A stretch of 64,000 nt of DNA, from NCBI GenBank assembly GCA_050084515.1, contig CM114271.1:24924001-24988000 (forward strand), in the 5' to 3' direction. A program made the translations under genes and the position numbers. Below the pieces are notes generated by a model. It did not search any database. It had not been told where the DNA came from and was given only the letters and a program-made list of their open reading frames with translations. Below are positions 9,933 through 52,559 of this stretch, piece by piece (position 1 is the first letter of the stretch; each line of letters begins with the position of its first letter). Source of the DNA: Blasia pusilla (taxonomy: Eukaryota).

Positions 9933-9936
9933 AACA

Positions 9937-10304
9937 TGTCATGACAATACGGATTAGGTCGTAGAGTATAGTGTGCTAGTAGAGACCATACCTTATGTAG
10001 GGCCGCAATGTCTAGGTAGAGATGCGATTTCATACATAGGGTTGGGGGTTACTCAGTTGAGGGTGACTTTTCCAGTAGGGCCCGCTCTTAGGTTGGAGGA
10101 TATAAGGTGGAGTGTCTTCAAAGAACACTTAGTTCTTTGAGTTGAGCCTGTTGCATTGGGAGTTAGCCTTGGTAGTGAGTAGAGCTCTTGGCTATGGTGT
10201 TTCCCGCAAGCTTCGACCTAGATTCTCCCATCGTGGAGTGGGTTTGGCTCGATTGTATGTGATTCTATACGTGTTTTATGACAGTAGGTATTTCACGGAT
10301 TTCA
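9937..10304 (+). repeat. Terminal repeat A1 (368 bp, TG...CA) of copy A, containing the TATA box
   Basis: Direct repeat of 17900-18267 with the same length; TATAA at 10101. Confidence 0.95.
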
Positions 10305-10315
10305 CTCAAAGAACT
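10305..10315 (+). promoter_or_regulatory. Putative self-priming primer-binding site CTCAAAGAACT
   Basis: Abuts the CA end of A1. It is the exact reverse complement of AGTTCTTTGAG at 10131-10141, 30 nt downstream of the TATA box. No TGG tRNA-type PBS is present. Confidence 0.75.
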
Positions 10316-11604
10316 AACGTAGATCGATGGTAGCTTCGATTGTGGATCAGTAGGATCTGGTTAGGGCTGATTGTGTACTCAGTCGTGGATGTTCGTGGCT
10401 TGTGGCCTATGTTGGAGGTGTGAATCTGGTGCGTGGTTGGTTGGGAAAGAAGCGCCTTGCTGAGAGCTTTCCAACGCGCTTTAGATTCCAATTGAATTCT
10501 GGTCGAAATAGATTCAATTTTGGTCAAGGATTTGTGAAGTAATTGCTGATCGAAATTTCGCGTACTAGCTCAAGGTCTGGCAATGGTGGAGAGCGGATCA
10601 GAGGGGCTCGTTGGTTGGTGACTCGTTCATTGTTGGAGACGCCTATCCCGTTGGGGGCGCCCTGGTTGGAGAGACGTTGAGGCTTCGAGGCAACTCGTGG
10701 TAGCTCGGGGCGAGTGGGCGTGAGAGGCGGAGCAAGGAGCAAGCAAGCAAGCTTGCTTGCTTGGGCGTGAGGCAATTTTTGCAGGATTTGTGATTTGAGT
10801 GTTGCATAACTGGTCACCCATCTTTGGGTTATTCTGCCTGGAAGACGCTTAACTGCTGAGTTCTTAACTATGCCAGTGTACACACTGGCATAGCTCATTT
10901 GGTGTTGTTTGGAGATGTGTTAGGCGCTTTATGCATCTCAGGTTTTTGGTTGATGTACCTCTAGCGCATAGTACGGTGTAGCCTCTCCATGCAGGTGATA
11001 TTTTCAGGTGCTGCGAGTCCGACTAGCACGTCATCGACCCGCCGCGGAGTAGCTATTGCGTTAGAATTGTGTGGTGGGTTCTGTGGATTCAGGGGGCGCC
11101 ACGTTTGGTGGATTGTGTTACCTTGATTTCCATTTGCGATTGGAGGGTTGTCGTTGGACTTCGTGTGTTTGGATCCCCTCCATCGTTGCTTCTTGCTTGT
11201 GCGCCCATTGTTAGGGTTGACGCTGATTTCCAGAGTAGTGTTACTCCTGTGTGCTACCGGTAGTGAGGTGGAGTGATGACCGATGAGACCGTGGGAGGCT
11301 TCTTGTGGTGATGACAAAGGTTAGGTTGCCTACACCCATAGCTAGTAGAGCTAGAATAGTATAGCGACATCGACGTCACTTGGTTACTTAGTGGTGGTAA
11401 TTTGGTGGTGGCGCGGCATTGGCGTTGGTCATCACGGAGCTGTCGGGTGGTCTGGTTGGGGACCGTGGTGGTTTCACATGGAGTGGATTTAGGTATCGGC
11501 TACCTTCTCCACTTCCGACGGTTGATGAAGAGGAGGACGAGGGTGTTCCAAACACCGAGTCTTCTACGTTGTTATCGAGTGTTGCAGCTCCATTGATTTG
11601 GGAC

Positions 11605-13830
11605 ATGGACGGGATATATGGGGCCATGAAGGGCCCACGACGATACTCGGGTGCAGTGGGCACCATTGAGTTGGAGGACTTCATGCAGGAGTTTGATACG
11701 TGGTGTGATATGCAGATGTTGCGGAACGCCACGTTGTTTACACCCTTCTTGGCTTGAAAGGGGTTGTTTCAGCACTTGGAGGGACCACCCATGGATGATT
11801 ACCATGAGTTTAGGAAGGACCATGTTGCTGAGATTGAGGCATGGAGACAATATTGGTCTCTAGGCTATATGTCTATCACCCATGGTGGTATTGGTAGTAG
11901 TGCTCCTACTATGCCAGCCAGCCCAACGTTGAGTGGTACGAGTACGAGCGGGAGTGGGGGTACTAGTGGAGGTACCCATGGAGGTACCAGTGGGGGTACT
12001 AGTGGAGGTACTAGTTCCCCACCATCGTTTAGCCTGGTTGCAGAGTTCTTCAAGAGGTTGAAGAAGAACTATCAGGGAGTGAAGACAGAGAAGTTGATGA
12101 GTCTTCAAGAATTTGAGCGAAAGACTGGTGAGAGTCTTCGTGAGGCATACACTCGTATGCGACGCTTGATTTCGATTACCTAGGGTATGGCGAGGCTCGA
12201 GCGATCCGATTTTGGTATGGGATCTTGGACGAGAGAGTTGCGCCGTAAGGGTGCGTGATGCTACTCTTATGAGTGATGATTCACCCACATTGACCCATGT
12301 GTTTGCTCTATCTGAGAAGATTGAGCTTAACATGCTGAAGGAGAGAGTGGTGACATCCGCATTCAGTAGGAATACAACTACTACTTCTCGTGTTCAGCAA
12401 CCCACCTCACAGTCTCGTAGTAGTAGTGGTGGTAGTAGTAGTGGGAGTCGTGGGGGATACACACGACCTCAGTCAGGTCCTAGAGGGACATTTGCGTAGA
12501 GACCATTGCCTTCATTTGCTGCCCCGCAGCAAGGACAGTCATGTTGGACATGTGGAGGTAATCATGTTAGGAAGTTTTGTCCCCAAGAGGGTGGGAGACG
12601 GACTTTGGAGGATGGACCTCAGTCGGCCCCAACTCAGTGTGATCATTGCGGGAGACCAGGTCATCCTCTAGAGCGTTGCTTTGATCTTCATCCAGAGTTG
12701 AGATCAGGCCGCGACCGTGGTGGAGTAGCTCTGAGAGGACGAGATGGTAGAGGTGGACCAGTGGTTGGAGAGCCTACATTGGCTACCCCTACCACTACGA
12801 CAGAGTCAGCTATGGCTTCCAGGATTGAGCAGTTGGCTACTATGGTTGGTATCCAACATAGATCACGTTTGGGAGCAGGGGCTTCCACCTCTTATGGAGG
12901 GGATGATCTCTCTTATATGGCGAGTGCATCACAGGTTGAGGCATCGGCTGCAGTTATGAGAGGAGCCACTCAAGCGTCAGAGCCACGTGGTGCTCTTGTG
13001 GAGTTGGACCCCAGAGGGGTGAGGTGGGGGCGGGCTAGGCTTCCCGGTCATTCTTGTTGTCTAAGGTGCTTAGGACTCCATCCATGGTTCCTCACGAGCC
13101 TATTGAGCCGCATGTGGGGACTAAGGCATCTACATCGCGTGTAGTAGACACGGATGCAAACATCGATCAAGATATTGCGGATGGCAACCGGTGTTGGGAT
13201 CCCCATTGTTTTGGTCCGAGGCGATGGCTTTAGGAGTTGACTTAGCTCCTGTATTTCAACTAGCAGCCACGTTGTGTGAACGTGGGGGTGTTACTACTAC
13301 ACGTGCTGAGGTGGATGAGGGTGTGCGGTGGAGCGACCCTCTATGTCAGGTGTAGCATTGAGTACCGGTGCTACTTGGCGGCGGCGGCGGCGAAGATGGA
13401 TGCATTACCCGGCCCGGCCAGCCATTGATCGTGAGAGGCTTACACCTGGTGTATGTATGTTGGACAACCAGAGTGGGATATTCCGATTGGTGAGTCCTAC
13501 AAGACAAGTGTATAGACGAGATAGAGTCTTGTTAGACTCTGGTGCCCAACCTTTGATGTTGGGAAAGGCAATATGTATTGGTTTGGGTATTTGGAGGTCA
13601 GAGCTTGAGCCTTGCCCATTCCAAATTCAGACATCACTTGGAGGTGCCAATGATAGGTCTCATTTCATGACACGGGGGAAGTTTTCTGTATAGTTGAGAC
13701 CAGATGATGCGATTGATAGCTCCAGGTTGGGAGTACCTGCAGTGGTCACATCGGCCAAGTCATATGATGTACTAGTTGGAGGAGCAATATTGTACCCGAT
13801 GGGTTTTTAGATGGACTACTGGATTGAGAC
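11605..13830 (+). pseudogene. Copy A gag (two CCHC zinc knuckles) and aspartic protease
   Basis: ELEDFMQEFDTWCD; CWTCGGNHVRKFC and CDHCGRPGHPLERC; VLLDSGAQ; several stops and frameshifts. Confidence 0.9.
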
Positions 13831-14262
13831 AGCGTCTTATAGACCTGGTTGGCAGTCTGGGGATGGACGTATGAGCGAGGTTCCTGTGAGATTTATTTAT
13901 TGGGCTCAACCAGGAGGGTCTTCCCCAACAGTGTTAGCATATGTCGTTGGTTTTAGTGGAGAAGTCACTTGGCCAGGAGACTTTTTGGAGGGTACCATTT
14001 CTGCTATGGATTCTCCTGTGCATGAGGAGGTAGAGGAGGTCCCTAGTATTGCAGCAATGGTATCCTCATCGTTGGATGTGCCACTTTGGAGTTCAGGCGG
14101 TGCACTACGGCAAGAGGCTGGTCGCCTAGTGCAGGAGGCTTGGTGTGAGGGTGTTATACCTCACGAGGAAGAGGAGGCCCCACGGCGGACTTTTACTTCT
14201 GGTCCACTTGGGTTATCCCCTTTGGATACTACACCATTGTATGGCAGTATCCACCGGAGGGC

Positions 14263-14620
14263 ATTTGTGTGTTAGATCTCTTTGGTGGGATTAGCATTGG
14301 TTTGGTTGCAGTGTTGCAGGTCGGTATTCCTGTGCGGAGATAAGTGTATGTGGAGCGATATGAGACGGCCCAGAGAGTCTCATCCTGACATATTGGTTAG
14401 TTGATGCGGAGATATCATGAGTTGTTGCCGCCATCAGCTATTCGTGGGTACCAGTGTGCTTTGCCGTCACACATTGCATTGTTGGGGGCGCAAGACCTTG
14501 AGAGGGTTGGTCCTGTGGATTTGGTGATTGCTGGATGGCCATGTCAGGGTCATACACGTGCTGGTCGTGGTGAGGGATTACACGACCCTAGGTCTCGATT
14601 GTTTTGGGAGATGTTACGGG
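14263..14620 (+). pseudogene. Copy A DNMT3-like C5 cytosine methyltransferase, N-terminal half (motifs I-V)
   Basis: ICVLDLFGGISIG (motif I), YVE (motif II) and GPVDLVIAGWPCQG (catalytic motif IV); truncated at TTACGGG. Confidence 0.9.
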
Positions 14621-17600
14621 AGGTGAGAAACGACGCTTGACACAGTTCCTACGTGCTTATAGGAGTTTTTTTGCCTTTAGCATGAAGGATTTGGGTGCTC
14701 TGGTTGGACCCGGTATACGGATTGATTTGGCTAGTGATATGCCAATCTTCCGTCGTCCCTACCGATATAGTCATATGGAGAGGCACCTGATTCAGAGTAG
14801 GACGTTGGACCTTTTGGAGGCTGGATTAGTAGAGATGTTGCATGGAGAGTATGCATCGACGCCCTTTGTCATGCTCTGCTAAAAGGATATGCATGGCAAC
14901 TACACGGATAGGCGGATGTGTGGAGATTACCGTCCTATCAATCGGCAAACCAAGGCCAATAGGTATGCCATGCCTACACTTGAGGAGATCTTTGATGTGG
15001 TGGGACAGGCAAAGATTTTCAATACTTTGGATCTTCGGGCAGGATACCATCAATTGCCGATTCGGAAGAGTGACAAGGCCAAGACAACATTTTGGGGTGT
15101 CAACTCTCATGGTAAGGATTGTTTGTACCAGTGGAAATTCTTACCCTTTGGGTTGAAGAATGCACATGCTGAGTTTCAGAGAGTGATGGACAGGATCCTA
15201 GCAGGATTGGATTTTGTTCGGTGTTACATTGATGATATCTTGGTGTTCAGTAACACGGTGGAGGAGCATCAGATACATTTGCAGATGGTGTTTGAGCGGT
15301 TGAAAGCTCATGGTCTACGTTTGTATCCAGGAAAGTGTAAGTTCTTCCATGAGGATGTTGAGTACTTGGGTCATGTGATCTATCCAGGTGGTTTGGGAGT
15401 TCAGCAAGCAAAGATGGAGGCTATTGCACTTATTCCGCGTCCGGTAGATGTGAGTAGAGTTCGAGCATTCATGGGATTGGCGAACTACTATCGGAGGTAT
15501 GTGAAGGGATTTAGTGCTATGGCAAAGCCTTTGAACCAATTGCTGAAATCAGATCAAGAGTGGCACTTTGGGAGATGATCGGAGAGAGAGCTTTTGTGGA
15601 GCTTAAGGCCCAGTTGGTGGCGGCGCCTATCTTGAGGAGACCTATCGAGGGCGCCCATTTCAGATTACACACGATTGGAGTAGGTTGGGACTTGGAGCGG
15701 TGTTGACACAACATGATGATGAGCACATGGAGTTTGTGGTGGCCTATGCTAGTCGTTCGAATAATGCAATGGAGTCGCGCTATAGTTCATATGAGGGAGA
15801 GTGCTTGGCAAGAGTGTGTCTTTGTGGCACACTTTAGGTGTTACTTGTTTGGCACACGATTTACCCTTGTTACTAATCACCCGGCCGCTCAAGTGGTTGA
15901 TGGAGTCGGACAAGCTTACAGGGAAGCTTGCACGGTGGGCTCTTATCTTACAAGAGTATGACTTCAGGTGGTACATAGACCTGGAGTTGCCAACCTTGAT
16001 CTTTGATGGGTTGAGTAGGAACCCATGTACTAGCCAAGAGGATACAACTGGGGCTAGATGGCATGGCGAGGTTGATGAGGAGATGGTGCTAGGTTGGCAT
16101 GCATCCGCCTTTTTATGTTGGTTAGGGGTGGACTCTAGTATGGAGGACCACATGATATCTTACTCTAGTCGAGGGTAGATGGCACCTTGAGATCCTAAGG
16201 TTGGAGATGGTGGTACGGATCAGCGTGATATTCATGATGATGCATTGGTGTTGGAGTTCCTACGGACCAGTAGGGTGCCAGGCATAGTGAGTGCCAAGGA
16301 GCGAGACCGTGTTCTTCAACGTGCTAAGAGGTATCGATTGGAGGGAACACATATTCTCCGTGTGTGGGAGGATGGTAGAGTACGAGTAGTGCCGCATTTG
16401 GCTCATAGAGAGCGCATTGTGCGACATGCCCATGAGGAGTTGGGACATTTTGGGGTAAAGCGTACGTATAGCTTACTCCTTGGTCAGTATTGGTGGCGTG
16501 GCATGCATACTCAAGTGCAGCAGTTGGTGTCATGTTGTATGGTTTGTGACCGGGTGAGGGCATCATTCAATGCCTCTACACCACAGTTACACCCTTGCAT
16601 ATTATGGGGTTGGAGTTCTTGTTGGAGTGTGAACTTTCGGGACCGTTACCGTTGGTATGCGACATCATCGATATGTGTTGGTGATGGTGGAGCACTTCTC
16701 CAAGTGGATTGAGTTGGTGGCATTACCGGACAAGGCAAGTGAGGGAACGGCGTATGCGTTTCTTGATAGAGTGCTTAGTCATTTTGGTGCACCAGCTGAA
16801 GTCTTTGACCGACCGAGTCTGAGTTTGGGGTGAGTTTCAGGTCTTGTGTGACAAGGCGTTGATTGATCATCGGACCACATCTCGAGATCATCTAGAGGCG
16901 GATGGTTTGGCTGGCGTGTGGTTCAAGACGGTGAAGAGGGCATTGCGCAAGTATGGCCTACAGAAGGGGCATCTTGGAGACTGGGATATTGAGTTGCCAT
17001 GGTTAGCCATGGGGTATAGGTTCAGTCGCCAAGCATCCTTGGCTTCCTTCTCACCTTATTTTTTGTTATACAGCCGAGATCCAGACTTGCCAACAGCAAT
17101 TCGTCGCGAGTCTAGTGAGGTGGTGAACCTTGATGACCCAGAGATGTGGATGAGAGTGTGTTCTCAGCGGGCAGAGCTCTTTCGGAGAGTTATGCCAACA
17201 GCCTTTGAGAATCTTGCCATTGCTCAACACACGGATACGTTGCGGTATGCAACCATTTGGGATGGAGGTTATCGACCATCGATTCGTAGGTTCCATGTGG
17301 GGGACTATGTCTATTTGCAGCAGATTGCACCGACAATGTTGGATGTGACGGTAGGCCACACTATTTTACGAGTGCGCAAGGTGTTAGCTTCTGGAGTTCT
17401 AATGTTGGAGGGTCGTGATGGAGTTGTTTGGAAGGACCATGTGTGTAATTCTGCGCCATGTCATCTTCCAAATGTGGATGGTACTGTTGACCCAAGCTTA
17501 GCCATGATACGTGCTAGCTTGAGGTGCATGTTGTGGGTGCTTTGTGTAACGCGGCCCGTATGTTGGTGTGTGATCGGTGTTCTAGGGGTTGGCACATGAT

Positions 17601-17663
17601 GTGTTTGACTCCACGTATGGATGTTGTTCCTATTGGAAGGTGGGTTTGTCCTCGATGTACTTA
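14621..17663 (+). pseudogene. Copy A reverse transcriptase, RNase H, integrase and C-terminal PHD finger
   Basis: RMCGDYRPIN, LDLRAGYHQ, LPFGLKNA, YIDD; EFVVAYAS; HAHEELGHFG...CMVC; frameshifted PHD at the end. Confidence 0.93.
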
Positions 17664-17779
17664 GGAGAGGTAGATGGGGCAACCTAGCACTCGGCCTTCT
17701 GATTCGGGCACCCAAGAAGGTGTATAGCATGTAGTAGATGTATAGGGCTACCTGGGAGTTAGAGGGACCTAACCGCCAG

Positions 17780-17791
17780 TTAGGGGGGCGA
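17780..17791 (+). promoter_or_regulatory. Putative polypurine tract (TTAGGGGGGCGA) immediately before repeat B1
   Basis: Purine-rich run directly upstream of B. The same position is seen in copies B and C and in the older relative. Confidence 0.65.
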
Positions 17792-18373
17792 GTTGTGGTA
17801 CACTTGTGTTTTTGGATGCTCTTGTCTTTGTTATGTATGTATGTGAGTATGGTATGTCAGCGATATATATTGTATGACGATGTGGATTCGCACGACAACT
17901 GTCATGACAATACGGATTAGGTCGTAGAGTATAGAGTGCTAGTAGAGGCCATACCTTATGTAGGGTCGTAGTGTCTAGGTAGAGATGCGATTTCATACAT
18001 AGGGTTGGGGGTTACTAAGTTGAGGGTGACTTTTCCAGTATGGCCCGCTCTTAGGTTGGAGGATATAAGGTGGAGTGCACTCAAAGAACTGTTAGTTCTT
18101 TGAGTTGAGCCTGTTGCGTTGGGAGTTAGCCTTGGTAGTGAGTAGAGCTCTTGGCTATGGTATTTCCCGCAAGCTTCGACCTAGATTCTCCCATCGTGGA
18201 GTGGGTTTGGCTCGATTGTATATGATTCTATACGTGTTTTATGACAGTAGGTCTTTCACGGATTTCAGTTGTGGTACACTTGTGTTTGTGGATGCTCTTG
18301 TCTATGTTATGTATGTATGTGAGTATGGTATGTCAGCGATGTATGTTGTATGACAATGTGGATTCGCACGACA
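17792..18373 (+). repeat. 3' terminal array B1 (17792-17897) - AC spacer - A2 (17900-18267) - B2 (18268-18373)
   Basis: Two 106-bp B copies flank a 368-bp A copy. Junctions read CACGACA-AC-TGTCATG and GATTTCA|GTTGTGG. Confidence 0.95.
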
Positions 18374-18377
18374 AGCA

Positions 18378-26632: not shown

Positions 26633-29600
26633 TTTTGTACGCATACAGATCGCTACCCAACCCACATCATTGGTCACTTCTACACACCACTTAACACCCA
26701 TCTTCCCCACACTTGAGTCGATCCATCCATAAACCAAAAAAACACACATATATACATTGAGATCCCACAAAAAAAATTAGAGTAAAAATAATACATCCTG
26801 CCTAAAACTCCACTCTTGAATCTACATTGGCATATGGAGCCTCATCCATCCTCTTCCATCAGGGAATTTTGGACGCTAGAACCCTGGTCCTATCTCACAC
26901 ACGAGAAAGAGAGGTGCTCCAACGGCCCAACATGAGAAAGATGGATTGGGAAAGCCATCTCTCACCCTTATATAGGAATGGGAAGAACCAAAAGGCTCTT
27001 CCCCTAAAAATAGCAATCCTCTTGGTAATTTACGCGCACAAATTACCATGGGCGAGTGAACTACTCAACGAGTCACCCGATTGTGAAAGACCCAAATAGG
27101 ATTTTTTTTGGAAACGACATTCCTCATATAACAGACTATCCTCAACCTCATTGGACAACTCAAGGACAAAGTTACATTGAAGATAGTCTGTTGGCTCTCT
27201 ATGACATCGCTACGATAGATCTCTACCTATCAGCGACTACGATGTGACAATTATCGTGCGTGTGCATATCACTACACAACCCACATTGTTGGTCATATCT
27301 ACACATCACACAACATTGATCTTCCCAACGCACGGGTCAATCCATCCATAAACCAAACAAACTCTCACATATACAACGAGACCCCACATGCACAACCGCC
27401 CCTCTAATTGGAAGTTGGATCCCCCTAACTCCAAATAGTAAACACCTATGAACCTGACATGATCTACTATCCTATACACATCTAGCACCATCAATGTCGT
27501 CATCCCCGCAACACTACAACACTGCAAATACCTGCCGTGTTGATCCCTCCGAAGACCAAACCTGCTCCAAACGCTGCCACATAACAAGTATGGTACCCAA
27601 ATATTTGAAGTCTCCATCCCAAGAGCACGAACGTCACATGACTCTATCTCCTCCAAGACACACGCACTACTCCACGCCTGCCTCACGAGCTCCTTTGTAC
27701 CACAAGGCTCGTACCTAACAACGATAAAGAAAAATCTATACCATGGGAAGAGACACCCACCTTGGCATGTCTCTCCATGGGACTATCCGCTATGGGAATG
27801 TCTTCCATATGTATGCTCCTCTCCCCAAACTCTCCTAATCAACTAACACCACTTGTGAATGCTGCCAATGTAGTCACCGTATCCTCACGTGGTCGACCAC
27901 CACTATCCCATGCAAATTGCACTGGTGGATGGCTCACTTGTCCATCACCTGATCGCCACCCTGGCCAATAAGAAACCATCTCCTCCCAGAAATCCAAGAT
28001 AAAACCAAGGGGTTACAACACGGTACTCCCTACCAACACATCATACAACTCTATCGATGTCATAATTGCTCGAGTGCGCACCATCACACTATCTGTCTCA
28101 TGCTCTGGCTGGAGTCTAACCACCAACTCATGTCAAGTCATGTATTGCATGGGTGATACGCCCCCAATAGAGGTCTGTATCTAAAAGGGACAACATTTGA
28201 TGTTGCCTTTCTGTAATCCCAACACTTAACATGCAGCCTTCCCTAACAACAAGGGCTACGCTCTTGAATCAAGTATGACGCGTTTAGGGTGGTACACTCT
28301 GCCTATGCGACTAACCAAGCAAAACACTCCAGCTTGATTATCCAAAAACACCACATCAGGTGTGATCATGGATCGCTCTATTGTTGTCCTAGTTGGCATA
28401 TCTACCAACTTTGTCACCGTAGCATGCTATGACTGAGTGGGGGACGTTCCAAGCACATGCGCCAAGGGCAAGTCCATCACCTCCTCAACTACCTGTGAAC
28501 AAGAGACAGTCACTACCTCTCCAAACTCACAGAATGTGGCGGCCAACCGGAACACCACCGCGCGCTAGCTGGTCTGACTCCCATCTTCGCCAACTCCATG
28601 GCGGAAAACAATGAAGCCTATCTCATCCTAGTGGCCACCTCCAACCACATGGTTGACACTGACTCCATCCGAGTCGACATAAGAATTGTCTCTCCCACTC
28701 CTCGTGATGTGGATGCACTAGTCCCACCCGTGGGCACTACTGGTCGTCGGGGCACCATCAACGGTGTATGAAGTACCTCCAACAACGTGAACGACTAGGG
28801 AACCCTAGCTTGCCACCCATCGGTTCCCTCTTGTGGGTCAATCTCAACCCCACCTCTTGGTGGCTGGGTTACTCTCGGAGCACCCTAGGTCACCACCGTA
28901 GTAGCCTCAACCTGAGCCGCACTACACATAAATCCCATACCACAAGAATCCTCACCCGTGTCGTGGTAAGATGTGGAGGCTTGAGCCACACTAGCTACTC
29001 TCGGCTCCGTGCCTATCCCTAGTTGCATTAGCGTCATGGCAGCAAAACTCTACTCCAAGTGATCCATGCGAGAAAGCGTTGCATCGACTGCACTTCCTCC
29101 ATCTCTTGTGCTTGATGATGGAACTCTACCACCAGGATCATCCACTTCTCAATCTCCACCAACTCTCTCGCTCTCAGGTCCTATGCCTACCTCTAGACGT
29201 ACCTCTCGGCAAAGATCAAAACACCTATCCCTAATGTGACCATTTCGGTGACAATGATCACACTATAACTACGGTGAGGCCATCCGAAGGTGGCTCCTCA
29301 GCAATCGGAGGTGCCCTCAATCCTCTATCATGCTGTGGGCATTCCCTCTGCCTATGTGGCCCACCACACATCCAACAAGCCAAACCTGGTCCCTGTTGGA
29401 TGATATATGTCGGTACGGGTCATTGCCTCATCGGCTCACAATACCCGCCCTACTCTTTGGGCCCATCGGCCCGCTCTTGTGGTACTAGTGCATGTTGGGT
29501 CACTTGTTGGGCTACTCCTACTCGCAAACCCATCGAATCTCTGAAAATCCCGTGGTCACCAACTGCTCCTCACTCATATTGAGCTCTACCCGCTTAGACA

Positions 29601-30674: not shown

Positions 30675-33600
30675 TGTCGTGCGAATCCACATCGCCATAC
30701 AACATACATCGCTGACATACCATACGCCCATACATACATAACATAGACGAGAGTATCCACAAACGCAAGTGTACCACAACTGAAATGCGTGAAAGACCTC
30801 TTTGTCATAAAACATGTTTACAATCACATACAATCGAGCCAAACCCACTCCACGATGGGAGAATCTAGGTCGAAGCTTGGAAACACCATAGCCAAGAGCT
30901 CTACTCACTACCAAGGCTAACTCCCAAGCAAGAGGCTCAACTCAAAGAATGATCGTTCTTTGAGGGCAAGCCACCTTATATCCTCCAACCTAAGAGCGGG
31001 CCCTACTGGGAAAGTCACCCCCAAGTGAGTAACCCCCAACCCTATGTATGGAACCGCATCTCTACCAAGCCACTACGGTCCTACATAAGGAATGGCCTCT
31101 ACCAAAGACACCATACTCTACGACATAATCCGTATGGTCATGGCGGTGTCGTGCGAATCCACATCGTCATACAACATACATCATTTGACATACCATACGC
31201 CCCCATACATACATAACATAGCGAGTATCCACAAACGCAAGTGTACCACAACTCGCCCCCCTAACTGGCGGTTAGGTCCCTCTAACTCCCAGGTATCCCT
31301 ATACATCTACTACATGCTATACACCTTCTTGGGTGCCCGAATCAGAAGGCCGGGTGCTAGGTTGCCCCATCATTAGTCGCACATCTGTAATCCATATCAT
31401 GCAAAGATCAAGTCATCTACCTCTCCTAAGTACATCGAGGACAAACCCACCTTCCAGTAGGAACAACATCCAAACGTGGAGTCAAACACATCATGTGCCA
31501 ACCCCTAGAACACCGATCACACACCAACATACGGGTGCGTTACCGATACCCACACAACATGCACCTCAAGCTAGCACCTATCATGGCTAAGCTTGGGTCA
31601 ACAATACCATCCACATTTGGAAGATGACATGGCGCACAATTACGCACATGGTCCTTCCAAACAACTCCATCACGACCCTCCAACATGAGAACTCAAAAGC
31701 TAACACCTCACGCACTCGTAAAATAGTGCGACTGCCGTCACATCCAACGTTGTCGGGCAATCTGCTGCAAATAGACATAGTCCCCACATGGAACCTCTGA
31801 ATCGATGGTCGATAACCTCCACCCGAATGGTTGCATACCGCAAGCGTATCCTGTGTTGAGCAATGGCAAGATTCTCAAGGTTGTTGGCATAACTCTCGAA
31901 AAGAGCTCCGCCGTTGAGAACACACCCTCATCCACATCTGGGTCATCAAGGTTCACCACCTCACTAGACTCAAGAATTCTTTCTTTGGCAAGTCGGATCT
32001 CGGCCGTATAATGAGAAAATAAGGTGAGAAGAAGCCAAGGATGCTTGGCGGTGAACCTATACCCCATGGCTAACCATGGCAACTCAATATCCCGGTCTCA
32101 AGATGCCCCTTACTGTAGGCCATACTTGCGCAATGCCCTCTTCACCGTCGAACCACACGCTCAGCCAAACCATCCGCCTCTAGATGATCTCGAGGCGTGG
32201 TCCGATGATCAATCAACGCCTTGTCACACAAGACTGAAACTCACCTGAAACTCTGTACCCTGGTCGGTGAGCACTTCGGTGGTGCACCAAAATGACTAAG
32301 CACTCTATCAAGAAAGCATCGCCGTTCCTCACTTGCCTTGTCGGTAATGCCACCAACTCAATCCACTTGGAGAAGTGCTCCACCATCACCAACACATATC
32401 GATGATGTAAATGCGATCATGATAACGGTCCCCATAAAGTCCACACTCCAACGGTAACCCAACCCCATAATAGGCAAGGGGTGTAATTGTGGTGTAGGGG
32501 CATTAAATGATGCCCTCACCCGGTCACAAACCATACAACGTGACACCAAGCTGCTGCTGCACTGAGTATGCATGCCACGCCACCAATACTAGCCAAGGAG
32601 TAAGCTATCGTCGCTTTACCCCAAAATGTCCCAACTCCTCATGGGCATGTCGCTGTCGCTCTCTCTGAGCCAAATGTGGCACTACTCGTACTCTACCATC
32701 CTCCCCACACGGAGAATATGTGTTCCCTCAATCGATACCTCTTAGCACGTTGAAGAACACGGTCTCGCTCCTTGGCACTCACTATGCTGGCACCCTCTTG
32801 GTCGTAGGAACTCCAACACCAACGCATCATCATGAATATCACGCTGATCCGTACCACCATCTCCAACCTTAGGATCTGAAGGTGGCCATCTACCCTCGAC
32901 TAGAGTAAGATATCATGTGGTCCTCCATACTAGAGTCCACCCCTAACCAACATAAAAAGGCGGATGCATGCCAACTGGCACCATCTCCTCATCAACCCCG
33001 CCATGCCATCTAGCCCGAGTTGTATCCTCTTGGCTAGTACATGGGTTCCTACTCAACCCATCAAGCATCAAGGTTGGCAACTCAGGTCTATGTACCACCT
33101 GGAAGTCATACTCTGTAAGATAAGAGCCCACCGTGCAAGCTTCCTGTAAGCTTGTCCGACTCCATCAACCACTTGAGCGGTTGGTGATCAGTAACAAGGG
33201 TAAAGCGTGTGCCAAACAAGTAACACCTAAAGTGTGCCCACCCACACTCTTGCCAAGCACTCTCCCTCATATGAACTATAAGCGTGACTCATTTGCATTA
33301 TTGAACGACTTGCATAGGCCACCACAAACTCCATGTGCTCATCATCATGTTGTGTCAACACCGCTCCAAGTCCCAACCTACTCCAATCGTGTGTATGGCT
33401 GAAATGGGCGCCCTCGATAGGTCTCCTCAAGATAGGCGCCGCCACCAAGCTGGGCCTTAAGCTCCACAAAAGCTCTCTCGTGATCATCTCCCCCAATGCC
33501 ACTCTTGATCTGATTTCAACAATTGGTTCAAAGGCTTTTTGCCATAGCACTAAATCCCTTCACATACCTCCGATAGTAGTTTGCCAATCCCATGAATGCT

Positions 33601-36600
33601 CGAACTCTACTCACATCTATCGGACGGAATAAGTGCAATAGCCTCCACCTTTGCTTCTTTGAACTCCCAAACCACCTGGATAGATCACATGACCCAAGTA
33701 CTCAACATCCTCATGGAAGAACTTACACTTTCTGGATGCAAGCGTAGACCATGAGCTTTCAACCGCTCAAACACCATCTGCAAATGTATCGATGCTCCTC
33801 CACCGTGTTCTTTGAACACCAAGATATCATCAATGTAACACCGAACAAAATCCAACCTGCTAGGATCCTATCCATCACTCTTTGAAACTCGGCGGTGCAT
33901 TCTTCAACCCAAAGGGTAAGAATTTCCCTTTGGTACAAACAATCCTTGCCATGAGAGTTGACACCCCAAAATCTTTGTCTTGGCCTTGTCACTCTCCCGA
34001 ATCGGCAATTGATGGTATCTGCCGAAGATCCAAAATCTGAAAATCTTTACTGTCCCACCACATCAAAGATCTCCTCAAGTGTAGGCATGGCATACCTATC
34101 GGCCTTGGTTTGCCGATTGATAGGGACGGTAATCTCCACACATCCGCCTATCCGTGTAGTTGCCATGCATATCCTTTTTAGCGAGCATGACGGTGGTGAT
34201 GCATACTCTCCATGCGACAACTCCACTAATCCGGCCTCCAAAGGTCCAACGTCCTACTCGAATCAAGTCCCTCTCCATATCACTATATCGGTAGGGACGA
34301 CGGAAGATTAGCGTATCACTAGCCAAATCAATCCGTATCCGGGTCCAACTTGAGAGAACCCAACTCCTTCATGCTAAAGGCAAAACAACTCCTATAAGCA
34401 CGTAGGAAGCTGTGTCAGCGTCGTTTCTCACCTCCCGTAAGCTTGGGCCCAAGTAATGGCTCCCAAGTCTCCTCCTTTGGCACACTAGAGGAGAGGGCGA
34501 TGCCATTGGGGTTGCTCATAACCCCCTCACAAGATGGTACACCCTTAGCTACACCATCATCGAGCAAATAACTCCTCCACCAACATGAGCAACCAACTCC
34601 ACATGCCCAGCCATTACATCCCATCTACTCCAAGGATGCAAAATACTACTCTCCTCGCCCCAACCGATGCCTCTACCGTCCGGTAGCCATCGAGCTCATT
34701 ACAAGGGTGGAAGACCCACAGACATAGTCGAAGTCGATTTATTTGCTCGGCCATACCAAGACTCAAAATCCAAGTCAAACAATTCAGGTCCATGGCTTTG
34801 ACCCAACACATGGCGTCGTGAAGCCTCGAGAAATAGAAGCAACCATTTGTCACACGATAGTAAATCCCGCCGCGCGCTCTTTCTCTCATCAGCGTTAGGC
34901 TCCACCAACTATCGCACATGAGAATCCCATACAAGCCCGGACCACCTTCCCTGTAGGCATGTGGCGAGGAAAACTCACAAATGTGGGTAGTGCCATCCTA
35001 GGTGGCCCACACGGTTCCTTGCCATGGGTGACCGATCAATAACCCTCACCACTTGGGAAAGTCGCCCGGTATCAAGATACTATCCTTTGTAAGGCGAGGA
35101 TCGCCTTTGCATCATATGCTCGACGTAGAACCTCCCTAGGCAACAAGTTTGTCCACCACAAGCGTGGGCGATGTGCATCTTGAGCCAACTCATGTTGCAT
35201 CCAACAACACCACTGGTCCAATCCAAGAGCGCACCTCATGAACACTCGCCATCATCCGGGTCGAGTGTCACCCAACAATGGAACATTCTCGAATGTAAGC
35301 TAGAGCACGTGTGCGATGAACTGAAGATGTCGTAACACCCGTAACATCTCCCAAAACAATCGAGACCTAGGGTCATGTAATCCCTCACCACGACCAAAGA
35401 CGTGTATGACCACGACATGGCCATCCGGCAATCACCAAATCCACGGGACCAATTCTCTCAAGGTCCTGCGCCCCAACAATGCAATGTGTGATGGTAAAAG
35501 CATTTGGTACCCACGAATAGGTGATGGCGGCAACAACTCAGGATATCTCGCATCAAGCGACCAATATGTCGGGATGAGACTCTCTGGGCCGTCTCATCTC
35601 GCTCCACATACACGTATCTCTCATGCAGGGAATACCGGCTGCAACACTGCGACCAAACCAGTGCTAATCCCACCAAAGAGATCTAACACACAAATGCCCT
35701 CCGGTGGATCGCCATACAATGGGTGTAGTATCCAAGGGATAACAAGCTGGGCGTAGTAGGAGTCCGCCGTGGGGCCTCCTCTTCCTCGTGAGGTATGACC
35801 TCACACCAAGCCTCTGCACTAGGCGTCGCCTCTGCCGTAGTGCACCGCTTTGAACTCCAAAGTGGCACATCCAACGATGAGGATGCCCTTTGCTGCAAAA
35901 ATAGGGACCTCCTCTTCCTCCTCATCATGCGGGAGAATCCATAGCGAAACATTACCCTCAAAAAGTCTCTGGCCAAGTGACTACTCCACTAAAACCCGAC
36001 CCACGGATGCTAACACTTTGTTGGGAAGACCCTCTGGTCGAGCCCGAAATAAATCTCACAGGAACTTGGCTCATCGTCCATCCCGGACTGCCAACCTGGT
36101 CTATAAGATCTTTGTCTCGATCCGATAATCCATCGAAAACCCATCGGGTACAATCTGCTCCTCCAACTAGTACATCACACGACTCGGTGATGTGACTACA
36201 TGAATACTCCCAACCGGGAGCTATCGATCGCATGATCTGGTCTCAAGCTGTCAGAAAACTTCTCCGTGTCATGAATTGAGACCTATCATTGGCTCCTCCA
36301 AGTGATGTTTGAATCTGGAATGGGCAAGGCTCAAGCTCGACCTCGAATACCCAAACCAATACATGCCGCCTTTCCCAACATCAAGGTTGGGCACGAGTCT
36401 AACAAGACTCTATCTAGTCTATACACTGTCTGTAGGACTCACCAATCGGAAGATCCCACTCGGTTGTCCAACATACATACACCAGGTGTAAGCCTCTCAC
36501 GATCAATGGCTGGGCGGGTGGTAATGCATCCATCTTCGCATTTCTTTGCTTTGCCTGTAAGTAGCTTTGGTACTCAATGCTACTCGACATAGAGGGTCGC

Positions 36601-39600
36601 TCCACGCAACACCCTCATCCACCTCAACACGTGTAGCGATAACACCCCACGTTCACACAAGCGTGGTGCTAAGCTGAAATACTGGAGCTAAGTCAACTCC
36701 TAAAGCCATCGGCTCCATGGCGAAAATAATGGGGATCCCAACCTTTGAAGTTGCCATCCGCAATCTTTGCATTGGATCTTTGCATCCGTGTCTACTACGC
36801 GATGTAGATGCCTCGATCCCCACTGTTGGCTCAATAGGCTGCCTAGGAACCATGGATGGAGTCTAAGCACCTCAGACAACAAGAATGACCAGGGAAGCCT
36901 AGCTGCCTCCCGGCCTCACCCCTCTGTGGGTCCAACTCCTGAGTAGCACCACGTGGCTCGGCGCTCAAGTGGCTCCTCTAAATAGCTGCGGCTGATGCCT
37001 CAACTTTGTCTTTGCACTCGCCATATAAGAGAGATCATCCCCTCCATAAGAGGTGGAAGCCCCTACTCCCGAACCTGATCTATCTTTGGATACCGACCAG
37101 TAGTAGCCAACTGCTCAAGCTGCTCAATCACGGCGACCATAGGCGACTCTGTCGTAGTGGTAGGGGTAGCCACCGTAGGCTCTCCAACCACTGGTCCACC
37201 TCTACCACCCCTACCACCTCTACCACCTCGGCCTCTCGGAGCTACTCCACCACGGCCACGGCTGATCTCAACTACGGATGAAGATCAAAGCAACGCTCTT
37301 GTGGATGACCTAGTCTCCCAATGATCACACTTGAGTTGGGGCCGATTGAGGCCCATCCTCCAAAGTCCGTCTCCCATCCTCTTGGGACAAAACTTCCTAA
37401 CATGATCACCTCCACATGTCCAACATGATTGTCTTTCTTTGGGGCAGCAAATGAAGGCAATGGTCTCTGCACAAATGTCCCTCTAGGACTTGGATCGAGG
37501 TCGCGTGTACCCCCACGACCCACTACTACTACCACCACCACTACTATGAGGCTGTGAGGTGGGCGGTGAACACGAAGTAGTAGTTGTATCCCCTCTTGAA
37601 TGCGGATGTCACCACTCTCTCCTTCACCATGTTAAGCTCAATCTTCTCAGATAAAGCAAACACATGGGTCAATGTGGGTGAATCATCACTCATAAGAGTA
37701 GCATCACGTACCCTACGGCGCAAATCTCTGTCCAAGATCCCATACCAAAACTGGACTGCTGATCCTCGTCACACACTGGGTAATAGCTGAAATCAAGCGT
37801 CGCATACAGTGTATGCCTCACGAAGACTCTCACGATCTTTCGCTCAAAGTCTGAAGATTCCTCAACTTCTCCGTCTTCACTCCCTGATAGTTCTTCTTCA
37901 AACTCTTGAAGAACTCTGCAACCGGGTTGAACGATGGTGGGGCACTAGTACCTCCACTAGTACCCCCACTAGTACCTCCACTGGTACCCCCATTCCGGCT
38001 CGTACTCGTACCACTCAACGTCGGGCTGGCTGGCATAGTAGGAGCACTACTACCAATACCACCATGGGTGATAGACACATAGCCTGGAGACCAATATTGT
38101 CTCCATGCCTCAATCTCAGCAACATGGTCCTTCCTAAACTCATGGTAATCATCCATGGGTGGTCCTTCAAATCTTTGAAACAACCCCTTCCAAGCCAAGA
38201 AGGGTGTAAACAACGTGGCGTTCGCAACATCTGCATATCACACCACGTATCAAACTCTGCATGAAGTCCTCCAACTCAATGGTGCCCCCTTTGCACCGAG
38301 TATCGTCGTGGGCCCTTCATGGCCCCATATCCACCGTCCATGTCCCAAATCAATGGAGCTGCAACACTCGATAACAACGTAGAAGACTCGGTGTTTGGAA
38401 CACCCTGATCCTCCTCTTCATCAACCGTCGGAAGTGGAAAAGGTAACCGATACCTAAATCCACTCCGTGTGAAACCACCACTGTCCGCACCACGGTCCCC
38501 AACAGACCACCCGACAACTCGTGATGACCAACGCCGATGCCGCACCACCACCAAATTACCCAAGTGCGTCGATGTCGCTCTACTATTGTAGCTCTACTAG
38601 CTATGGGTGTAGGCAATCTAACCTCTCATCACTACAAGAAGCCTCCCACGGTCTACGGGTCATCCCCAGCCCCACTATCGGTAGCACACGGGAGTAACAC
38701 TACTACGGAAATCAGCGTCAACCCTAACAATGGCGCGCAAGCAAAAAGCACGATGGAGGGGATCCAAACACAGGAAGTCCAACGACAACCCTCCAACCGC
38801 AAATGGAAATCAAGGTAACACAATCCACCAAACGTGGTGCCCCCTGAATCCACAAAACCCACCACACAATTCTAACGCAATAGCTACTCCGCGGCGGGTC
38901 GATAACGTACTAGTCGAACTCGCGAGACTGAAAATATCACTGCATGGAGAGGCTACACCGTACTATGCGCTAGAGGTACATCAACCAAAAACCTGAGATG
39001 CATAAAGCGCCTAACACATCTCGAACATCACCAAATGAGCTACAACGGTGTGTACGGCATAGTTAAGAACTCAGCGATTAAGCGTCCTCCAGGCAGAATA
39101 GCCCAAAGATGGGTGACCAGTTATGCAAAACTCAAATCCCAAATCCTGCAAAAATTGCCTCACCTCCAAGCAAGCAAGCTTGCTTGCTTGCTCCTTGCTC
39201 CTTACTCCGCCTCTCACGCACACTCGCCCCGAGCTACCACGAGTTGCCTCGAAGCCTCGAAACGCCGAGACATGCCCCTATCGCCCCGTTCGCCACGCTT
39301 CGCCATGCTTCGCTATGGAGAGAGGTCCAACCAGGGCGCCCCCAACGGGATAGGCGTCTCCAACAATGAACAAGTCACCAACCAACCAGCCCCTCCGATC
39401 CATTTGTCCACCATAGCGGACCTTGAGCTAGTCGCGAAATTTCGATCAAAAATTACTTCACAAATCGTGACCGAAATCAAATCTGTTTCGATCAGAATTC
39501 AATTGACCACCATAGCTATCTCCCCACAAAAACTCAGCTACAACCGAGCTCCGTACTCGAGCTAAAAATCAGACAAACTTCTTTGTCCATACACCTCTAG

Positions 39601-40391
39601 AACCGCCAAATCCCGGCGCTTCCGCCAAGTTTCATGCACGCAGAAATCCATAACGCTCCACGCACTTGAGCGAGATAGCTTCACATGAGATCACAATACA
39701 AGTAGCAATAGGAACCTCTCACCCGATCTGGATGAACTTCAACAGAGCTTCCGACTCCAAGCTCTCCACATCGGAAAAGCGTCGAACCACACGAAGAATC
39801 TTCAATGCTTGATAACTTCCAACTCCCTTGACGAAATCCGCGATCTACAGCGTTGGAAAGCTCTCAGCAAGGCGCTTCTTTCCCAACCAACCACGCACCT
39901 GATTCACACCTCCAACATAGGCAACAAGCTCCGAACATCCACGGCTGAGTACACAATCAGCCCTAACCGAGATCCTCTTGATCTACAATCGAAGCTACCA
40001 TCGATCTACTCCAGTTCTTTGAGTGAAATGCGTGAAAGACCTACTGTCATAAAACACGTTTACAATCACATACAATCGAGCCAAACCCACTCCACGATGG
40101 GAGAATCTAGGTCGAAGCTTGCGGGAAACACCATAGCCAAGAGCTCTACTCACTACCAAGGCTAACTCCCAACGCAAGAGGCTCAACTCAAAGAACTGAC
40201 TGTTCTTTGAGGGCAAGCCACCTTATATCCTCCAACCTAAGAGCGGGCCCTACTGGGAAAGTCACCCCCAAGTGAGTAACCCCCAACCCTATGTATGGAA
40301 CCGCATCTCTACCAAGCCACTACGGTCCTACATAAGGAATGGCCTCTACCAGCACACCATACTCTACGACATAATCCGTATGGTCATGACA
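30675..40391 (-). mobile_element. DNMT-PHD Gypsy copy B, about 9.7 kb, A-internal-B-A-B, many indels
   Basis: Perfect TSD CATG (30671-30674 and 40392-40395). A1 40024-40391, PBS 40013-40023, B1 about 31147-31252, A2 about 30781-31145, B2 30675-30780. All domains are present as fragments. Confidence 0.95.
34750..35695 (-). pseudogene. Copy B DNMT3-like methyltransferase domain, full span but frameshifted
   Basis: Fragments YVYVERDETAQRVSSRHI, EPNADER and CWVKAMDLNCLTWILSLG are collinear with copy C. Confidence 0.85.
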
Positions 40392-47600: not shown

Positions 47601-47800
47601 CATACACAAACACAAGTGTACCACAACTCGCCTCCCTAATTGGCGGTTAGGTCCCTCTAACTCCCAGGTATCCCTATACATCTACTACATGCTATACACC
47701 TTCGTGGGTGCACGAATCAGAAGGCCGTGTGCGAGGTTGCCCCATCGTAAGTCACACATCTGTAATCCATATCATGCAATGATCAAGTCATCTACCCCTC

Positions 47801-47941
47801 CTAAGTACATCGAGGACAAACCCACCTTCCAGTAGGAACAACATCCATACGTGGAGTCAAACACATCATGTGCCAACCCCTAGAACACCGATCACACACC
47901 AACATACGGACTGCGTTACCAGTAGACCCACACAACATGCA
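47801..47941 (-). CDS. PHD finger (C4HC3) at the integrase C-terminus of copy C
   Basis: CMLC-x11-CDRC-x4-HMMC...WVCPRC in the same ORF as the integrase core (47801-48535). Confidence 0.92.
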   Translation of the reverse strand, partial: CMLCGSTGNAVRMLVCDRCSRGWHMMCLTPRMDVVPTGRWVCPRCT

Positions 47942-50930: not shown

Positions 50931-51174
50931 GCAGCTACGCAACCCCCTCACAAGATGGTAGACCCTTAGCTACACCATCATCGAGCAAATAACTCCTCCA
51001 CCAAAGATGAGCAACCAACTCCACATGCCCACCATTACATCCCATTTACTCCAAGGATGCAAAATACTACTCTCCTCGCCCCCAACCGATGCCTCTACCG
51101 TCCCGGTAGCCATCGAGCTCATTACAATGGGTGGAAGACCCACAGACATAGTCCGAAGTCGACGCTGCGCGCTC

Positions 51175-52130
51175 GGCCATACCAAGACTCAAAATCCAAG
51201 TCAAACAATTCAGGTCCATGGCCTGACCCAACACATCACGTCGTAAAGCCTTAGAAATGGAAGCAACCGCTGTCACACCAGTAGCAAATCCCATCGCATG
51301 CTCTCTCTCATCAGCGTTAGGCTCCACCAACTGTCGCACATGAGAATCCCATACAAGCCCCGGACCACCTTCCGTGTATGCATGTGATGAGGGAAAACTC
51401 ACAAATGTGGGTAGTGCCATCCTAGGCTGGCCCACACGGTTCACCACTGCCATGGGTGACCGATCAATAACCCTCACCACCGAGAACGCCGCCAAAGATC
51501 AAGATACTATCCTTTCGTAAGGCAAGGATCCCGATGCACTGCATCATATCCTCGATGTAGAACCTCCCTAGGCAACAAGTTTGTCCACCACAAGCGTGGA
51601 CGATGTGCACGCGAGCCAACTCGCGCTGCATCCAACAACACCGCTGGTCCAATCCAAGACCGCAGCTCATGAACACTCGCCATCATCCGGGTCCGAGTGT
51701 CACCCAACAATGGAACATTCTCCAGAATGTAAGCTAGAGCATGTGCCTAATGAACCTGAAGATGTCGTAACACCCGTAATATCTCCCAAAACAATCGAGA
51801 CCTAGGGTCGTGTAATCCCTCACCACGACCAGCACGTGTATGACCCTGACATGGTCATCCAGCAATCACCAAATCCACAGGACCAACCCTCTCAAGGTCT
51901 TGCGCCCCCAACAATGCAATGTGTGACGGCAAAGCACGCTGGTACCCACGAATAGCTGATGGCGGCAACAACTCATGATATCTCCGCATCAACTAACCAA
52001 TATGTCGGGATGAGACTCTCTGGGCCGTCTCATATCGCTCCACATACACGTATCTCCGCACAGGAATACCGGCCTGCAATTTTGCAACCAAACCAGTGCT
52101 AATCCCACCAAAGAGATCTAACACACAAAT
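51175..52130 (-). pseudogene. Copy C complete DNMT3-like C5 cytosine methyltransferase domain with in-frame stops
   Basis: Motifs in canonical order: VLDLFGGISTG (I), DLVIAG*PCQG (IV), ILENV (VI), AHRPRLWWTN (VIII), EREHAMGF (IX), RRDVLGQAMD (X). Confidence 0.93.
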
Positions 52131-52559
52131 GCCCTCCGGTGGATACTGCCATACAATGGTGTAGTATTCAAAGGGGATAACCCAACTGGACCAGAAGTAA
52201 AAGTCCGCCGTGGGGCCTCCTCTTCCTCGTGAGGTATAACACCCTCACACCAAGCCTCCTGCACTAGGCAAGCAGCCTCCTGCCGTAGTGCACCGCCTGA
52301 ACTCCAAAGTGGCACATCCAACGATGAGGATACCATTGCTGCAATACTAGGGACCTCCTCTACCTCCTCATGCAGAGGAGAATCCATAGCAGAAATGGTA
52401 CCCTCCAAAAAGTCTCTTGGCCAAGTGACTTCTCCACTAAAACCAACCACATATGCTAACACTGTTGGGGAAGACCCTCCTGGTTGAGCCCAATAAATAA
52501 ATCTCACAGGAACCTGGCTCATACGTCCATCCCCAGACTGCCAACCAGGTCTATAAGAC

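Follow-up and report, generated by a model that had tools for sequence, protein, structure and literature searches.

The 64,000-nucleotide (nt) stretch of the Blasia pusilla assembly GCA_050084515.1 considered here (contig CM114271.1, positions 24,924,001 to 24,988,000 of the forward strand; hereafter the window, numbered from its first letter) contains copies of a Ty3/gypsy-type retrotransposon family, family W, whose repeats carry a candidate site for self-primed reverse transcription of the kind known from the fission-yeast element Tf1. Copies A and B share the order L-PBS-internal-PPT-X-L-X, in which L and X are repeated segments, PBS is the predicted primer-binding site and PPT the polypurine tract. 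On the forward strand, the first repeat of copy A, L1 (TGTCATGAC...GGATTTCA, 9937..10304), holds the promoter and the R-U5 (repeat and unique 5′) part of the functional long terminal repeat (LTR) and is 95.4% identical to positions 17896-18267. Beyond the PBS follow an internal region with many stop codons (10316..17781; from Pfam, translations, tblastn and blastn) and the PPT AGGGGGGCGA (17782..17791). Directly 3′ of this tract lies X1 (17792..17897), the 5′ part of the functional U3 (unique 3′) region, which ends in ...GCACGACA; a 2-nt spacer (17898-17899) leads to the second repeat, L2 (17900..18267), and X2 (18268..18373), aligned to X1 and joined directly to the end of L2, forms the right end of the inserted element. 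The target-site duplicates of copy A read AACA on the left (9933-9936) and AGCA on the right (18374-18377).

Sequence comparison places copy B on the reverse strand at 30675..40391 (L1 40391-40024, X1 31253-31147, L2 approximately 31142-30782, X2 30781-30675), with a target-site duplication CATG/CATG just outside these limits. Copy C, also on the reverse strand (47522..57167), consists of L1 (57167-56800), the internal region, the PPT and one X (47628-47522) that is followed by flanking DNA; it has neither L2 nor X2 and is bordered by TCAT/TCAT. Copy D (58261..58735, forward strand) is an L plus an X alone, between ACTT/ACTT. Element length is 8.4-9.3 kilobases (kb), and all three full copies, A, B and C, are degraded, with many stop codons. 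The 4-base-pair (bp) duplications of copies A and B lie outside the L start and the X end, and the layout thereby departs from that of a canonical LTR element: the left terminus falls 106-115 nt inside the LTR that the PPT defines, and the right terminus is a second X past the end that the PBS defines. The outer ends, TGTCATG... and ...CACGACA, form an inverted repeat, as do the X end, spacer and L start inside the element (GACA-NN-TGTC), where the spacer is AC, GC, AT or TC depending on the copy.

The same organization recurs outside the window. With the reverse transcriptase (RT) of copy C as query we recovered 170 relatives in metagenome contigs, of which 80 loci were kept, and loci with identical flanks were merged (L004=L006, L005=L007, L012=L013, L014=L018, L024=L031=L035=L068, L026=L030, L034=L036, L038=L041, L055=L056 and L076=L078); no relative was found in viral contigs. 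These loci include a related family, M, with the same layout, an L of about 339 nt and an X of about 115 nt, and its junctions place the PBS at the L end as in copy A. An X-L-X 3′ end occurs in 8 distinct M elements besides copies A and B, and a PPT-X-flank 3′ end, judged by eye, in 13 distinct M elements besides copy C; the PPT found in copy A also precedes X in most of the copies compared. Among the 14 insertions with both ends, in which target duplications were scored, the 4-bp duplication is perfect in 10 (B, C, D, L004 AAGG, L008 TCTC, L031 CATA, L018 CACA, L007 TGTT, L070 TACA and L030 TACA), agrees at three of four bases in copy A, L028 and L044, and at two of four in L056. X1 and X2 of one element share element-specific variants: copies A and B differ from each other at five positions that are the same in X1 and X2, and one to three variants are shared in each of four M elements, alignment-edge columns being set aside. 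(A nearest-neighbour comparison of X1 and X2 was confounded by the presence of the same locus in several contigs and was replaced by these counts.) Since the two X copies share such variants and no prominent L-to-X2 group appears among the RNA read groups listed, X2 is rebuilt in each cycle, in the manner of an LTR.

Pairing between the repeat and the adjoining 11-mer

In L1 of copy A a TATA box, TATAAGG (10101..10107), precedes the 11-mer AGTTCTTTGAG (arm2, 10131..10141), which begins 30 nt past TATAA (10101-10105) and which sequence, folding, conservation and covariation mark as the predicted RNA 5′ end and self-primer. The PBS CTCAAAGAACT (10305..10315), which starts immediately after the terminal ...GGATTTCA of L1 at 10304, is the exact reverse complement of arm2. 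The original prediction, that the 11 nt behind the CA end of the repeat are complementary to a site 30 nt past TATAA, thus holds to the base, and so does its statement that the pairing is exact in copies A and B with one mismatch in copy C. On the reverse strand, copy B pairs at 11/11 positions (PBS 40013-40023, arm2 40187-40197); in copy C, the PBS CTCAAAGAATT (56789-56799) and arm2 ATTTCTTTGAG (56963-56973) carry one change each, both on the same pair, which leaves a U·U mismatch and 10/11 paired positions and not a compensated pair. The upstream near-copy that was said to form a hairpin corresponds to arm1 (10117..10127, from sequence and an alignment of six copies), a second copy of the PBS letters located 3-5 nt upstream of its hairpin partner arm2. 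It carries private changes in L1 of copy A, lies at 40211-40201 in copy B, and in L2 of copy A is the exact 11-mer (18080-18090), 3 nt 5′ of arm2 (18094-18104).

By simple arithmetic, chance would yield about 9e-5 exact complements of a single 11-mer in a single 373-nt repeat. When one mismatch is allowed, the window holds 15 occurrences of the 11-mer (1.63 expected); none of 100 shuffles reached this count, and 13 of the 15 occurrences are arm1, arm2 or PBS positions in six repeat copies. The pairing can be extended to 13-14 bp, by 10142 with 10304 and by 10129-10130 with 10316-10317, so that the paired stretch may be 12-14 nt instead of exactly 11.

The repeats of families W and M have diverged considerably (68-71% identity over aligned columns, with 63-92 gap columns), and the longest identical runs between L1 of copy B and L1 of L007 comprise arm2 plus 8 nt (19 nt), TTTCA plus the PBS (16), the L start (13) and arm1 (11). 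The distance from TATA box to arm2 is 30-32 nt in both families, although the length of the hairpin loop varies, and the 11/11 match of PBS and arm2 is also found in the M copies L004 and L007. A scan of 43 loci for CA followed by an 11-mer with an exact complement 90-260 nt upstream returned the known site in L004, L006 and L007 and one unrelated match in L020.

The two sides of the pairing also covary. In L034/L036, a single locus represented by two contigs, the PBS reads TTCGAAGAACT and arm2 of L2 reads AGTTCTTCGAA, an 11/11 match in which two pairs differ on both sides from the family standard while arm1 has kept the standard letters. Because arm2 of L1 in the same locus (AATGCTTCGAA) shares both diagnostic changes, beside two private ones, the two pairs must have changed on both sides in a replicating lineage. 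Within the window, a twelfth pair, 10130:10316, covaries, being T:A in copy A where copy B has C:G; RNA reads carry C at 10130 in 34/84, 82/145 and 44/89 cases (40-57%) and G at 10316 in 14/30, 5/10 and 16/24 (47-67%), the two sites not being linked by reads. Across 16 aligned 5′ regions, 87.1% of the cells of a 14-pair helix are paired, compared with 30-45% when the partner is slid; five pairs have changed on both sides, and the covariation score was reached by none of 500 shuffles, although the helix was derived from the same 16 sequences. Folding of one W and one M sequence pairs the 5′ 12 nt with the PBS in both the minimum-free-energy and the centroid structure.

These changes also bear on the possibility that the arm1/arm2 palindrome acts as a promoter or initiator sequence, with the PBS a duplicated arm1 that has no role in reverse transcription. 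Such an origin would account for the identical letters of arm1 and PBS and for a conserved palindrome between TATA box and predicted start. However, in the L034 lineage the PBS tracked arm2 and not arm1, the PBS always lies exactly at the L end, and a joint in locus L050, discussed below, falls at the same border, so that we give this explanation hardly any credence.

Several copies differ around the hairpin and leader. The hairpin is wholly or partly deleted at L008:1929, L028:4372 and 13256, L029:4585, L042:4585 and L070:4687, to a different extent in the repeats of L028, which looks like palindrome instability after insertion. At L004:2018-2033, and in other M copies, the leader behind the PBS (nTGTTTTTTGGGAG) resembles the reverse complement of loop plus arm1, and in L004 this complementarity to the repeat extends over 16 nt; such a leader may be an old, longer primer copy or may reflect a start site a few nt upstream.

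Transcripts and possible DNA traces of priming

Sense transcripts of the family are present in each of three stranded RNA runs with the same species label. Coverage of L is 80-196 compared with 10-30 in the leader (4- to 10-fold), and in each run 60-83 reads cross from X1 into L, from which we conclude that most L reads derive from the 3′ copies of the repeat. RNA depth declines between about 10190 and the L end, as would be expected if the RNAs terminate near that end. The only pile of read starts near the site, at 10098, is confined to one run and 30 molecules and was not read as a transcription start. An RNA joint leading from 10254 back 289 nt to 9966 within L, with 4 nt of microhomology, is carried by 4, 9 and 5 reads in the three runs and by no DNA contig; it could stem from a partly duplicated L variant or from template switching.

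Three loci carry sequence at the repeat borders that bears on priming. In L050, X1 and a full L precede an inverted stretch of L, which reaches from the L start to the far side of arm2 and ends in GGTCATGACA before the flank, and the joint lies exactly at the U5-end/PBS border. Judged from this arrangement, L050 is what would be expected if a strand of U3 plus arm2 had served as primer at the PBS before any trimming to 11 nt, had been copied into the plus strand and had then been cut by integrase at the first CA site. In L014/L018, the exact 11-mer plus GCTA stands between the L end and X, and in L008 a 20-nt filler ends in the PPT tail CGAG. The L014/L018 copy is heavily rearranged: L018:11000-11898 (equivalent to L014:5050-5819) runs from internal sequence through an inverted L(140-246), an inverted gag piece, L(180-end), the 11-nt PBS and GCTA to X, with a perfect CACA duplication, and resembles an aberrant reverse-transcription or autointegration product. 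We considered its L homology, which seems to begin at arm2, as a mark of the RNA 5′ end and dropped it on account of these rearrangements.

The PBS does not start with TGG, as a site for the 3′ end of a transfer RNA (tRNA) would, and is therefore not the complement of a tRNA 3′ end. It could nevertheless bind another host primer, be it a tRNA half, an internal tRNA fragment or some other small RNA, its likeness to the repeat then being mimicry or coincidence; half-tRNA primers are documented for plant Ty1/copia lineages (PMC6317226). A fixed host primer would forbid what is observed, namely joint changes of PBS and arm2, both in the L034 lineage and at the twelfth pair in the window, and in L050 the apparent primer copy derives from the element's own U3. 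Together with the missing TGG start, this makes a host primer very unlikely.

The Tf1-like self-priming advanced in the original prediction is supported by the conservation of the two sites, the compensatory changes, the L050 joint and the PBS without TGG, and we consider it the best reading: the site was most likely functional in the active ancestors of the present copies. Several observations weigh against it. The 11/11 pairing is retained in only 4 of 21 distinct 5′ junctions, the others showing 10/11 (seven), 9/11 (two), 8/11 (one) or 7/11 with an indel (one), or having lost the hairpin or the PBS (six); the copies are old and degraded, with L1/L2 identities of 82-96%. The two-pair compensation stems from a single lineage, and all four of its substitutions are transitions, while L050 stands alone and is truncated on its left by the end of the contig. 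No depth step is visible at 10131 in the three runs (83.2 to 89.5, 151.5 to 150.9 and 88.6 to 98.5), nor do read starts pile up there; since reads from the 3′ copies of L outnumber leader reads, a start at this position would be masked and no step would therefore be seen. Aragorn found no tRNA gene in the window or in the 80 loci together with it, the host's full tRNA set being outside the scope of that search. The RNase H cut and the end-joining step of the scheme given below are steps that we infer. Arm1 is as conserved as the other sites, yet nothing in self-priming as modelled here requires it; conceivable roles are to mask arm2 in the 3′ repeat or to act as a promoter element. Finally, RNAalifold, run on the 16 sequences, returned a structure without the arm2-PBS helix, in which the last 5 nt of arm2 and the bases behind them pair with a GU-rich partner.

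This competing helix for part of arm2 would also suit a different role for the pairing, as a structural leader stem for packaging, dimerisation or translation control, with something else doing the priming, and a conserved, covarying long-range stem does not by itself reveal its purpose. However, the paired site sits precisely where U5 ends, the position required of a PBS, and no other PBS candidate follows L. The joint between L and X (L/X) moreover sets the right end of the complementary DNA (cDNA) exactly before the 11-mer, and L050 and the 11-nt insertion of L014/L018 are DNA footprints of priming or of primer copying. A purely structural stem is thus an unlikely alternative to self-priming.

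Coding domains and affiliation

On the sense strand the coding region contains, in order, a weak gag match, a protease-like part, a C5 DNA methyltransferase (DNMT), RT, RNase H, an H2C2 finger, the rve integrase core and a C-terminal PHD finger. In copy A, Pfam places the methyltransferase at 14401-14637, RT at 14883-15578, the integrase zinc finger at 16191-16712 and rve at 16633-16830, all on the forward strand. The methyltransferase domain (PF00145; score 30 bits, cut-off 22, E 4.6e-7) sits in Pol between protease and RT; its region spans 50600-52250 in copy C and 34200-35800 in copy B, both on the reverse strand, relative to which about 900 nt near 14617 are deleted within the domain in copy A. 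The motifs LDLFGG, PCQ, ENV and RxR, which we take to be methyltransferase motifs I, IV, VI and VIII, are discernible by eye in the translations. The PHD finger (PF00628, E 3.6e-10; 47804-47940, reverse strand) lies at the extreme C-terminus of the copy C integrase, the place where chromoviruses have a chromodomain, and may guide target choice; Pfam found no chromodomain at that position.

The best solved relative of the RT is the Ty3 RT (E 8e-45). No match to a tyrosine recombinase (Phage_integrase) was found in 64 sense-strand open reading frame pieces, while the rve core is present; membership in DIRS/Ngaro was accordingly rejected, given a DDE integrase, 4-bp target duplications and no such match. 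Judged by its chromodomain, the Tf1/sushi (chromovirus) clade does not accommodate the element either, whose integrase ends in a PHD finger. The combination of RVT_1, RT_RNaseH, Integrase_H2C2 and rve with a C5 methyltransferase in Pol, and the repeat layout A-coding-B-A-B, are those of Gypsy-DNMT3 elements, and on these predicted features the family fits that description. KnitGypsy-Dnmt3 of Klebsormidium nitens, as presented by de Mendoza et al. 2018 (PMC5890265), has a Dnmt3 domain in a Gypsy Pol and a DIRS-like repeat arrangement; likened by that description only, it shares with our element the Gypsy domain set, the Dnmt3-like domain in Pol and the repeat layout, of which this is the one earlier mention that we found. 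The main text of that paper contains nothing on priming, target duplications or a PHD finger ("primer" there meaning PCR primers only), and a 2026 preprint mentions "streptophytes (Gypsy-DNMT3)" in passing. Our literature search, which covered the main text of the 2018 paper, found no account of priming or integration for Gypsy-DNMT3 elements.

Three further diverged families, E, L054 and L071, show either a PPT-X ending in ...ACA followed by a TGTCA... start, or PPT-X-flank. Family E is represented in the window, on the reverse strand, by the 3′ end of an element (26646..27432) with the PPT, X1 (27388-27265), L (27264-26770) and X2 (26769-26646); its L contains a TATA box with an imperfect hairpin spaced from it as in copy A, and the element's 5′ end lies outside the window. 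The one match to the predicted PBS of family E, with one mismatch at 41213-41223, falls in low-complexity DNA without L-like surroundings and was treated as chance. Only the 3′ end was recovered for L054 and only PPT-X-flank for L071, and the loci with about 60% RT identity (L074, L077, L079 and L080) are rearranged and yielded no 5′ end: in these an inversion within the element covers the stretch between the N-termini of DNMT and RT, with inverted copies of the N-terminal DNMT part on either side. Protease-like and gag-like remnants of family E lie at 27725-28561 and 30079-30244 (reverse strand); copy B has seemingly inserted next to or into family E, in which, through a large internal deletion, the protease region now adjoins the PPT.

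Proposed replication and relation to known elements

Self-priming is established for Tf1 and Tf2 of Schizosaccharomyces pombe and has been proposed for the Tf1/sushi group; Tf1 primes reverse transcription with the first 11 nt of its own RNA. To our knowledge, experimental proof exists for the fission-yeast elements only. The element described here resembles them in a PBS that directly follows the 5′ repeat, lacks a TGG start and is complementary, over an 11-nt core, to the predicted start of its own RNA. Atwood-Moore and colleagues reportedly found in 2006 that a primer copy can be retained at the cDNA end, to which L014/L018 and L050 may be compared. Our element differs from Tf1/sushi elements in its PHD finger in place of a chromodomain, the DNMT in Pol, its split and permuted repeats, the 4-bp duplication and the additional arm1 hairpin.

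In the proposed scheme, the RNA would begin some 30 nt past the TATA box, either at AGUUCUUUGAG or 1-3 nt upstream of it, and its 5′ end would fold back on the PBS some 160 nt downstream, forming 11 conserved pairs and up to 13-14 in individual copies. By analogy with Tf1, RNase H would then cut behind the duplex, RT would extend the freed 3′ OH through U5-R, and the plus strand would start at the PPT before X. Since the PPT adjoins X and the PBS adjoins L, the LTR defined by reverse transcription is X plus L, and the cDNA has the order X-L-PBS-I-PPT-X-L, where I is the internal region. Read from the copies themselves, the left end of this cDNA is GTTGTGG... and its right end is ...GGATTTCA, to which a copy of the 11-nt primer is added in some cases. 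The original prediction had fixed the right end at ...GATTTCA, and that end is indeed found joined directly to the PPT-defined left end, at L/X; it is not the end of the inserted element, which terminates in ...GCACGACA about 106 nt further on. Similarly, the repeat as first drawn is only part of the functional LTR.

The genomic form L-PBS-I-PPT-X-L-X is a permutation of this cDNA, in which the cDNA ends are joined (L/X) and the molecule is opened at the X/L border of the left LTR; that the ends were joined and the molecule then opened is drawn from this permutation. The L/X joint looks, from its sequence, like the junction of a 2-LTR circle. We suggest that the ends might be joined by ligation, as in such circles, or by end-to-end template switching, after which the DDE integrase would cut after CA on both strands of one X/L (GACA-NN-TGTC) and insert the permuted linear form with a 4-bp duplication. 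The L-I-X form (copy C and 13 M elements) and the L-X form (copy D) would arise if both X/L sites were cut or the linear cDNA were cut directly, although unequal recombination between the repeats would account for them equally well. Put generally, in this integrase-bearing Ty3/gypsy lineage the self-primed cDNA would first need its two ends linked, after which the DDE integrase would open it at an inverted repeat inside U3, so that the provirus keeps both a circle junction (L/X) and a spare attachment site (X/L), with L-I-X and L-X as products of cutting both sites. We offer this scheme tentatively, as a serious possibility that may well prove otherwise.

Retroviral 2-LTR circles, as in HIV-1 and foamy virus, are mostly dead ends, and there the palindrome is the ligated junction itself. 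The likeness to our element lies in L/X, where a U5 end is joined to a U3 start with variants that contain PBS or PPT remnants or filler, and in the X/L inverted repeat with CA...TG; the difference is that here U3 already contains the proposed cut site, and the provirus retains the ligated junction. The same topology is found in DIRS, Ngaro and PAT-like elements, with split repeats A1...B1A2B2 whose internal B1/A2 joint mimics the joined termini (PMC7192593, PMC5890265). For DIRS-1, the first of these sources states that the primer is still unknown and that an internal complementary region is needed after first-strand synthesis. Our element is set apart from DIRS by its DDE integrase (rve, H2C2), the 4-bp duplications, the lack of a tyrosine recombinase match noted above, and a PBS and PPT exactly at the repeat borders. 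The element is Tf1-like in its predicted priming, Ngaro/PAT-like in topology and Ty3/gypsy in its enzymes.

Among plants, Neumann et al. 2019 (PMC6317226) predict self-priming for 83% of Tcn1 chromoviruses (of mosses and clubmosses) and 89% of TAR Ty1/copia elements, which like the present family are green-lineage LTR elements without a tRNA PBS; Tcn1 has 5-bp duplications, a chromodomain, ordinary LTRs and a length of about 6.4 kb, as against 4 bp, a PHD finger and DNMT, split repeats and 8.4-9.3 kb here. In a Selaginella Tcn1 element, Novikova et al. 2010 (PMC2864245) detected no tRNA PBS and no sign of self-priming. The priming mechanism itself is already known in kind. As far as our search extended, what has not been described before is a self-priming site in a split-repeat Gypsy lineage bearing DNMT and PHD domains, nor have its PBS- and PPT-defined cDNA ends that differ from the integration ends, or its 4-bp target duplications.

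Taken together, predicted self-priming reaches a third and very different plant lineage, one with DNMT and PHD domains, and is backed there by compensatory changes and by a copy that looks like a by-product of priming. For this family, LTR-finding programs will miss both the PBS and the target duplication and will misplace the ends if they treat L as the LTR. The readable PBS and PPT locate the endpoints of reverse transcription as well as the cut sites of integration, and these are not the same; the puzzle of how split-direct-repeat retroelements rebuild their ends thereby becomes testable. If the proposed scheme is true, the split-repeat layout gains a concrete mode of replication with known primer sites, and the family would represent a working intermediate between ordinary LTR retrotransposons and the split-repeat DIRS/Ngaro elements.

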